A stretch of 19,149 bases of DNA from a virus (Duplodnaviria; Heunggongvirae; Uroviricota; Caudoviricetes): IMG/VR virus record IMGVR_UViG_2681813236_000002; one strand, given 5' to 3'. The position numbers were made by a program. Positions 18,001 through 19,149 of the stretch are shown here, piece after piece. Each line of letters starts with the position of its first letter. Positions within the stretch are counted from its first letter, which is position 1.

Positions 18001-19149
18001 TTGACTGGTTCTTTGACTGGTTCAAAAGAGTGACTGGTTCTGGGTGAATCTCCTGCACTACCCCCTGGTGCAACTCCTGCACTACCTGGTGAATTTGCTG
18101 CACCAGATAGTGAATTATTTGCACTACCCCCTAGTGAATCTCCTGCACCATCAAGATGAAGGAGATAGATATTACTTGAGTTACCTTTTTCACCTTTCCG
18201 GGTGACTTTTTTTACCAGCCCGGAATCACAAAGGGCCGCAATATGATTCATCACAGAACGTTTGCTAATCTCGCACTGGTCAGCAATATGCTGGTAGCTG
18301 GGCCAGCACTCACCCTGATCGCTGGCATTATCAGCCAGCTTGATCAGAACCAGTTTTCGCAATGGATTACCCACTCGAATTTTCATCGCTTTAACCATCA
18401 GCTCCATACTCATGCTGCACCTCCGAGATGCTTCATGTTTTTTCCGGAGCAAAAGGCTATAAGCGGCATACTGACGCGGTAATTACGGCCCAGCGGTTCA
18501 CAAACCACCTTCTGACATTCACGGTCAACCAGGCTAACACGTAGAACATGCCCTGCAGGCGTGGTGTACCACTGACCGGGGCGAGGACAACGGAAAGTCT
18601 GATTGGTAAATCGTTTGAAAATATTCCGGATCATTTGCGCCCCCTTACCTCTGAAGAGTTCAGCGACGAATGAATAAGACGGGCAAGAAATGCCGCATCG
18701 TTAATTCGGTCATACAGACTTACAGCCAGCGGTGATTCAGCTTTTTCCAGCATGGGATAAAGCTGCTGCAACCAGACCTGATGAATTGATGAAATGTAGG
18801 AACAGAGAACGCTGGCGTTATGTGCAACGTCGCTCGGTACAGAGGGCTTTGAAAGCTGTTTCTCCATCTGGTTAAAGGCATTGATGTATGCCTCTTTGAA
18901 CTGGGCAGCACGTTTCCCCGTGAAACCCATAGCAAGAAACGCAAAGCCGTCGCGGGTTATTTGATAGCAAGGAAGTTTGCGAGTACCGCCGTTGGGCTGG
19001 CGTACCAAAATTGATGTCTCCGCAAAATTGCGGGCACAAAACTCTGGAGAACAATCCAAAATGCGGATCTTTTTCAGAACATCGTCATGACGTTTAGAGA
19101 AGAAGTCAGCAACAGCCAAAGAAGATGTAACTGAACCGCCCCGGGTTTC

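Follow-up and report, generated by a model that had tools for sequence, protein, structure and literature searches.

What do short repeats inside a phage replication gene do, and does the DNA that carries them start replication? The question is raised by the right end of the IMG/VR virus record IMGVR_UViG_2681813236_000002 (Caudoviricetes), whose whole stretch of 19,149 nucleotides (nt) is referred to here as the window. A preliminary description of this DNA had taken the repeats for an iteron array embedded in the gene of a replication initiator, and had proposed them as a candidate origin resembling that of phage lambda. Comparative evidence supports this proposal and the position of the iterons in the DNA for the inter-domain linker. 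We consider it likely that the stretch, which lies within an initiator gene, serves as the origin of replication for the lambdoid Escherichia coli prophage that encodes this initiator, a prophage with an early region of the mEp460 / ST64B / Stx2c-phage type. A lambda-type origin is a known kind of element, which would here occur in a different initiator family. In the searchable literature, with subscription-only reviews outside our reach, no description of the origin of this HTH_36-type initiator family was found.

The initiator is a member of the HTH_36 initiators of phages and prophages ('O-like', PHROG 270). Its amino acids (aa) 17-67 match Pfam HTH_36 (PF13730; E 2.8e-11, 43.5 bits against a cut-off of 25 bits), the protein matches PHROG 270, 'replication initiation protein', at E 1.5e-88, and 5428 homologues were retrieved at E <= 1e-5. 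The AlphaFold model shows an N-terminal winged-helix domain with helices at residues 3-11, 17-29, 40-47 and 51-64 and wing strands at 67-73 and 79-85, a disordered linker, and a small helical C-terminal domain (Table 1); the predicted recognition helix is that of aa 51-64, KRSVMNHIAALCDS. All Foldseek matches of the model are generic winged-helix proteins, the DnaD N-domain 2v79 among them, and fold and sequence searches together gave such generic matches and weak DnaD-like ones, with DnaD_N below the Pfam threshold. A sequence search for relatives of solved structure yielded nothing meaningful. Homology of the N-terminal domain with lambda O or P22 gp18 was rejected (hhalign probability 4.5% for both; no PF04492, Phage_rep_O, at E <= 0.01); the likeness to lambda in the preliminary description is thus one of architecture only, with no detectable homology in this domain. 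A plasmid initiator of the Rep_3 type (RepE, pi, TrfA) was also considered and rejected, given the lack of a Rep_3 match, the single winged helix, the intragenic iterons and the lack of a DnaA box.

The repeats are real and lie where they had been placed, with five iteron copies and three exact copies of TGACTGGTTC, and the quoted peptides GDSLGGSANNSLSGAANSPGSAGVAPGGSAGDSP and EPVKEPVNEP agree with the translation. Instead of one array, however, they form two distinct classes, which together make up the linker-coding DNA. The first class comprises five imperfectly palindromic 15-base-pair (bp) iterons with the minus-strand consensus GTGCAnnAnnTTCAC (GTGCA-N5-TTCAC), spaced 24, 21, 21 and 24 bp apart and encoding aa 89-124. 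The 'CTCCTGCACTACC' and 'GTGAAT' units listed earlier are present as parts of this one longer repeat. These five iterons are the sole matches to GTGCAnnAnnTTCAC in the window, against 0.38 expected, and none of 200 shuffles reached five. The second class is GAACCAGTCA, at 18031-18040, 18014-18023 and 18002-18011, to which a fourth, degenerate copy is added at 17990-17999; a period of 12 bp separates the last three of these. The exact TGACTGGTTC units fall on the first three of these sites (18002-18011, 18014-18023 and 18031-18040); with one mismatch allowed, TGACTGGTTC has five sites in the window where 0.99 would be expected, the three exact ones being confined to the repeat stretch. Tandem Repeats Finder, run as the repeat-finder check suggested beforehand, separates the classes into an array of period 24 at 18044-18148 (4.6 copies) and one of period 12 at 17994-18024 (2.6 copies).

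Close homologues of the gene also carry the repeats, which answers the refuting comparison set in advance: near-identical initiator alleles have 1, 2, 5, 6.5, 8 or 9 iterons in proteins of 242-302 aa. In ten homologues from phages of E. coli, Salmonella, Klebsiella, Pectobacterium, Stenotrophomonas and Vibrio, 2-5 dyad-symmetric repeats are present in the linker DNA; the repeat sequence is group-specific (for example GTGACaaaatGTCAC, GGGGCAGGAGCTGCCCC, TGTGCCgccagaaaGCACA, TATGCCgccaaaaaGCATA and ATGGCAggaaaTGGCA), and the DNA that follows the repeats, AGAACCAGTCACTCTTTTGAACCAGTCA, is the same in all ten. Approximately 200 homologous loci of Gammaproteobacteria and their phages have 1-7 dyad-symmetric repeats in the same place, with a spacing of 21-24 bp. 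A search kept free of circularity, with the N-terminal domain alone as the query and one genome per species, gave 80 loci in Pseudomonas, Aeromonas, Shewanella, Marinomonas, Xenorhabdus, Proteus, relatives of Halomonas, Cardiobacteriaceae and others, and all 80 have a repeat array followed by a conserved 35-bp element or an indel variant of it. Of 391 intervals between repeats, 369 (94%) measure 21-24 bp, and the number of copies is four or five in 96 of the 127 arrays. As to the helical phasing raised in the preliminary description, 21-24 bp corresponds to about two helical turns. Dyad symmetry across the family is 0.74, as compared with 0.55 +/- 0.012 in shuffles.

Repeats at this position might also belong to a slippage-prone, low-complexity protein linker rich in Gly, Ser, Ala and Pro, which would have no role in cis and would leave the origin elsewhere. 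Such an explanation agrees with the predicted disorder of the repeat region, with units that keep the frame (21 and 24 bp, or pairs of 22 and 23 bp) and with an iteron copy number that varies freely among alleles. A linker, however, needs neither the dyad symmetry nor the two-turn spacing, nor a co-variation of the DNA with the recognition helix; moreover, repeats of the same DNA architecture encode peptides as unrelated as GAGDSP, PMPPKST, GGAGAA, PSDKMSP and PSEKSA, and the adjoining element is constrained at synonymous sites. We therefore regard a linker without a role in cis as very improbable, and the Gly/Ser/Ala/Pro-rich peptide may largely be a by-product of repeats kept for their DNA.

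The co-variation is visible in the individual groups. Helices of the form S(K/R)RS(V/A)(M/I)xH go with GTG(C/A)A-N5-T(G/T)CAC, SKSAV(R/K)xH with ATGCC...GGCA, (S/G)RSTVKxH with GGGGCAGGAGCTGCCCC, and DRSTVRxH with TGTAGGC...GCAC. Distances between recognition helices correlate with distances between iterons (Mantel r 0.62), and the correlation persists when the rest of the domain is controlled for (partial r 0.52, a value that none of 2000 permutations reached); the partial r for the rest of the N-terminal domain is only 0.085. These observations point to the iterons as the sites that the winged helix recognizes. Co-variation reveals the specificity of binding and not its purpose, and plasmid iterons also serve copy control, so the sites might act in autoregulation, as a transcription roadblock, or in exclusion or incompatibility, and not in origin firing. 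They are, however, intragenic, lying approximately 270 bp past the gene start and not in an operator position, and no promoter was found in or near the repeats, the TTGACT motifs of the plus strand having no -10 partner. The arrangement instead corresponds to that of lambda and P22, whose origins are proven, and the C-terminal tails of the initiators, described below, vary with the kind of helicase or loader gene beside them, which ties the protein to replication. A purely regulatory role is in our view highly unlikely.

Directly after the iterons lies the 35-bp element AGAACCAGTCACTCTTTTGAACCAGTCAAAGAACC, which encodes RTSHSFEPVKEP and is nearly invariant across the family. The TGACTGGTTC units, which had been read as initiator-specific iterons, are rather part of this family-wide element. 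The tandem 12-bp repeats overlap its 3' part, and their copy number differs between alleles (EPVK one to three times). Information content is high from CACCC through AGAACC...GAACC; the last iteron always stops 2 nt short of the element, and the register CACCC/AGAACC is kept family-wide. Copies of the element were found in 139 GenBank phage records, among them SfV, Min27, 24B, ZF40 and Aggregatibacter S1249, and in at least 120 IMG/VR contigs. The preliminary description had pointed to an AT-rich segment on the other side of the array; 18150-18190 is only ~60% A+T, and the conserved flank is on the downstream side instead. The segment at 18150-18190 cannot be counted as conserved with the element, since it encodes the last winged-helix strands and is GC-rich in Pseudomonas homologues.

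The constraint on the element acts on its DNA. In 63 non-redundant sequences retrieved by similarity of the N-terminal domain alone, 99% of the conserved-residue columns of the element use one codon, as compared with 50% in the N-terminal domain, where every synonymous codon is in use at conserved columns. Arg is AGA in 54 of 54 cases, Glu GAA in 59 of 59, Val GTC in 53 of 54, and Ser is AGT at one position (56 of 58) and TCT at another (57 of 57). The peptide varies nonetheless, with T/I, F/S/L and P/S changes tolerated, and synonymous sites frozen beside a varying peptide indicate selection on the DNA of the element. An explanation at the RNA level was rejected, as Rfam gave only a chance microRNA match (E 0.06, far under the gathering score). 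In one IMG/VR contig (L064), the element is flanked by a single iteron-like sequence and preceded by unrelated DNA in place of the winged-helix coding region, as might result if DNA had been inserted or rearranged precisely at the array.

We regard the element as a candidate site of unwinding or helicase entry; in addition, exchanges of N- and C-terminal modules take place at it. The N- and C-terminal halves of the initiator retrieve different phage sets in tblastn searches, and the initiator is therefore modular. In two natural chimeras (P0064 and P0072), an N-terminal domain of the 24B or BZS1 type, with its own iterons, is joined at the element to a C-terminal domain of the window's type. 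An inverted iteron-like half-site on the plus strand, CAGCAGATTCACCA (17972-17985, downstream of the 12-mer repeats), is probably fortuitous, because it is inherited along with the C-terminal domain and would mismatch the iterons of such chimeras. The exact joints, the independent matches of the two halves and an element that is not A+T-rich would also fit a linker for homologous recombination that serves module shuffling, or a conserved site for a host factor. Recombination alone does not account for an element whose synonymous sites are all under purifying selection in hosts that differ greatly in GC content, or for the fixed 2-nt register with the last iteron. As for a host factor, two other initiator families have short repeats of their own at this place, ACAAAAGACA in lambda and P22 and ACAGAGAATAC in Stx1_499 and mEp460_4F5. 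The type of short repeat follows the family of the N-terminal domain and not that of the C-terminal domain, which argues against a universal host factor and suggests that the element works with the conserved part of the initiator or is its unwinding site. A recombination or host-factor role in place of unwinding or helicase entry thus appears unlikely, although it deserves more weight than the explanations considered above.

If the stretch is an origin, dimers of the N-terminal winged-helix domain would bind the five iterons through GTGCA-N5-TTCAC. A spacing of two helical turns would place the bound proteins on one face of the DNA, where they might build a complex similar to the lambda 'O-some'. 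This complex would abut the 35-bp element at a fixed distance of 2 nt. We propose that strand opening begins at this element, which would be the equivalent of the conserved flank beside the lambda iterons, and that it gives the helicase access to the DNA. The exchangeable C-terminal domain, presumably a partner-recruiting domain, would together with the C-terminal tail bring in the helicase machinery.

The nature of that machinery is a question in itself, since the module has no loader of its own. The preliminary description had noted the lack of a helicase-loader gene after the initiator, and we agree: tblastn with 11 loader and helicase queries detected none within 3.5 kb, and the genes that follow are PerC-like, Dam, LexA-like, RusA and KilA-N. 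The module belongs to the 'O-only' class, loader-less modules that were counted in 34 of 314 lambdoid phages and described as 'not yet understood' (PMC12315714). The initiator ends in a portable tail of 24 residues, REDPYFKASYDNVDYSQIPAGFRG, whose terminus ...DYSQIPAGFRG-COOH agrees in 8 of the last 9 residues with the end of E. coli DnaT, SQIPPGFRG. In 120 DnaT clusters, IPxGFRG is invariant and the adjoining residues vary. The same tail is found on two unrelated initiators with a lambda-O-type C-terminal domain, those of mEp460_4F5 and vB_EcoS-569R4, and both of these modules are loader-less. A wider homology between the C-terminal domain and DnaT was rejected (hhalign probability 0.7%; no PF17948 match), the shared part being the last 9 residues only.

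The tails vary with the genes downstream. Homologues that share the core of the C-terminal domain have three unrelated tails. Tails ending in ..NLNF, ..KLTF or ..CNW have DnaC-like and DnaB-like genes downstream, ..WxxPEGWxDFI is accompanied by a lambda-P-like loader, ..YVFFDR by a primase-helicase, and ..TREGSL (compare ..IREGTL of P22 gp18) by a DnaB-like helicase. When all non-GFRG tails are pooled, a downstream partner is present in 42 of 48 cases; none is present in any of the 29 cases with ..GFRG. As the tail copies the conserved C-terminus of DnaT, host DnaB-DnaC is probably recruited through DnaT mimicry, a suggestion drawn from sequence comparison. More specifically, and tentatively, we propose that loader-less lambdoid phages fire their origin in this manner, with the IPxGFRG-COOH tail of unrelated initiators engaging a host reader of the DnaT C-terminus that would bring DnaB-DnaC to the 35-bp element. 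The tail might instead contact the downstream YfdN/PerC-like protein, as an unrecognised loader or adaptor, or tail and yfdN might merely travel together as a block of DNA. The two are indeed contiguous on the DNA, and a YfdN/PerC-like gene comes next in every loader-less example (the window, ST64B sb43, mEp460_4F5 and vB_EcoS-569R4). Set against this, YfdN-like proteins match families of transcription regulators only (PerC, ANR, MarR-like), and a chance match at the extreme C-termini of two replication proteins, the initiator and DnaT, is unlikely. A contact with YfdN, or simple co-travel, is in our opinion doubtful, though it should be kept in mind beside DnaT mimicry.

Several points weigh against an origin at this site and against the route of helicase recruitment proposed for it. 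The searchable literature contains no binding, unwinding or origin assay for any member of the initiator family. The window's own iterons show only weak dyad symmetry (4-5 of 7 pairs within the 15-bp core); the element and its downstream flank, at ~57-58% A+T, are less A+T-rich than the lambda flank; and neither DnaA boxes nor IHF sites are present in 17400-18700. The pairing of helix and iteron is not one-to-one, as helix EISRRSVINHIDA occurs with both GTGAAAAATCTGCAC and GTGCAGGAGATGCAC. One allele has a single iteron (P0042) and another has no invariant element (P0039); these may be defective prophages, or may reflect tolerance. The repeats are in frame and encode a flexible linker, so that selection at the protein level contributes to their form. 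Concerning the tail, the 29 GFRG cases are mostly close relatives, with approximately three truly independent contexts, and the papers on DnaT that were consulted do not establish the partner of DnaT's own tail.

Table 1. Features of the repeat stretch, the initiator and the neighbouring genes, with positions in the window
Feature	Position	Strand	Remarks
Rha-like regulator	18631-19119	minus	first in transcription order
74-aa open reading frame	18410-18634	minus	second in transcription order
Replication initiator, 272 aa	17595-18413 (stop codon included)	minus	ATG at 18413 behind a GGAGG site
N-terminal winged-helix domain, aa 1-88	18150-18413	minus	AlphaFold model, predicted local distance difference test (pLDDT) 80-93
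Disordered inter-domain linker, aa 89-157	17942-18149	minus	pLDDT 30-36 over residues 91-157
Small helical C-terminal domain, aa ~158-230	17724-17941	minus	AlphaFold model, helical domain at aa 162-229
C-terminal tail, 24 residues	17598-17669	minus	last 24 initiator codons
Iteron 1, GTGCAGGAGATTCAC	18134-18148	minus	pattern match
Iteron 2, GTGCAAATAATTCAC	18110-18124	minus	pattern match
Iteron 3, GTGCAGCAAATTCAC	18089-18103	minus	pattern match
Iteron 4, GTGCAGGAGTTGCAC	18068-18082	minus	nearest to a perfect palindrome (GTGCA-N5-TGCAC)
Iteron 5, GTGCAGGAGATTCAC	18044-18058	minus	fixed 2-nt gap to the invariant element
Invariant 35-bp element	18007-18041	minus	family-wide, nearly invariant
12-bp-period tandem repeats GAACCAGTCAAA / GAACCAGTCAAT / GAACCAATAG	17990-18023	minus	overlap the 3' part of the invariant element
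PerC/YfdN-like, 164 aa	17104-17598	minus	next after the initiator
Dam	16451-17137	minus	after PerC/YfdN-like
LexA-like	16128-16520	minus	after Dam
RusA	15742-16131	minus	after LexA-like
KilA-N	14913-15722	minus	after RusA

The right end of the window consists of minus-strand early genes of a lambdoid prophage (Table 1). The start of the YfdN/PerC-like gene overlaps the stop codon of the initiator (GTGA / ATGA), and its product appears MarR-like in the N-terminal half and PerC/ANR-like in the C-terminal half. Two further features of this DNA were considered and rejected, namely a terminator-like hairpin with a T-run at 18190-18205 on the plus strand, antisense to the initiator (TCACCTTTCCGGGTGA CTTTTTTT; 2 found as compared with 1.8 expected), and a GATC-free region of 600 bp around the putative origin, which is not significant. 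Near-identical DNA is found in phages 1720a-02, mEp460, Stx2c and Stx2a phages and cdtI, and Salmonella ST64B has ~84% identity; related modules occur in Stx2c and Stx2a phages, ST64B, SfV and many Vibrio, Klebsiella and Pseudomonas prophages. Among 5426 complete E. coli genomes, 925 contain exactly this putative origin stretch (17960-18200), in up to four copies per genome and in four places on plasmids, where genome annotation reads 'helix-turn-helix domain-containing protein' only, without an origin feature. Fusions of the N-terminal part of the initiator to RusA, Dam or other downstream genes were observed among P0047-P0050, P0025 and P0040; these fusions and the odd alleles P0039 and P0042 are probably deletion derivatives in decaying prophages.

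If the stretch is indeed an origin, a large initiator family would gain an annotation rule, dyad repeats followed by RGAAYCAGTMACTCTYYTGAAYCAGTCA, and a table of recognition helices and iterons could predict replicon compatibility. Two by-products are of more interest, namely a nearly invariant 35-bp element that is constrained as DNA, and a DnaT-like tail on the initiators of modules that lack a loader. The tail would supply a concrete hypothesis for helicase loading in O-only lambdoid phages, and, if DnaT mimicry is true, a function could be assigned to the C-terminal motif of DnaT itself. Replication of Shiga toxin (Stx) prophages is tied to toxin production (PMC7466680), which makes the origin and the tail potential points of intervention.

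The nearest known systems with which this locus can be compared are the origins of lambda and P22, the iteron plasmids, DnaD of Bacillus together with DnaD-like phage replication proteins, and E. coli DnaT. Gene O of lambda contains four annotated iterons, which occupy codons ~117-145 and are 20, 24 and 23 bp apart. At both loci, the origin, putative in the window, is inside the initiator gene, between a DNA-binding N-terminal domain and a partner-binding C-terminal domain; 4-5 dyad-symmetric repeats of 15-19 bp, 20-24 bp apart, are followed by a conserved flank; and iteron specificity travels with the N-terminal domain. Iteron number is polymorphic, with four in lambda and six in Stx phages (PMC7466680), as it is in the window's family. 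The O proteins of lambda and of Stx phages bind a single-stranded AT-rich region (PMC7466680). The lambda flank is strongly A+T-rich, whereas that of the window is a GAACCAGTCA-repeat element of ~57% A+T; furthermore, the window's module has no P-type loader, and its initiator copies the C-terminus of host DnaT and not the P-binding end of lambda O.

Phage P22 has an annotated rep_origin inside gene 18, with its own iterons and then short conserved repeats; lambda and P22 have different iterons followed by a common short repeat of the ACAAAAGACA type. The initiators of lambda, P22 and L bind different iterons within their own coding regions (phage L genome paper, PMC8022706). Unlike the window's initiator, gp18 is of the lambda-O type, and P22 encodes its own DnaB-type helicase, gp12; the end of gp18, ..IREGTL, is similar to the tails that go with DnaB-like helicases in the window's initiator family, and not to the GFRG tail. 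In a third initiator family, represented by Stx1_499 (L136, ~1350-1500) and mEp460_4F5 (L223, ~1990-2170), iterons of yet other sequence precede 12-bp ACAGAGAATAC repeats, the translation of which is TENTTEIT. A plan of variable iterons followed by family-specific short repeats thus holds in three unrelated initiator families. In vB_EcoS-569R4 (L224, ~1950-2100), CCGTCAAAATCTGAC repeats were seen.

The iteron plasmids (RK2 TrfA, F RepE, R6K pi) resemble this arrangement in having a winged-helix initiator that binds direct iterons beside short repeated 'mers', the 13-mers of the DNA unwinding element (DUE), where the duplex opens; plasmid Rep proteins also bind one strand of the DUE (PMC4081077, PMC10602881). 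They differ in that their iterons lie outside the rep gene, their initiators have two winged-helix domains (Rep_3) and DnaA boxes assist. The label 'primosomal protein I' on some phage records is an annotation only. With DnaT, finally, the initiator has in common the extreme C-terminus SQIP(A/P)GFRG-COOH, the rest of the two proteins being unrelated.

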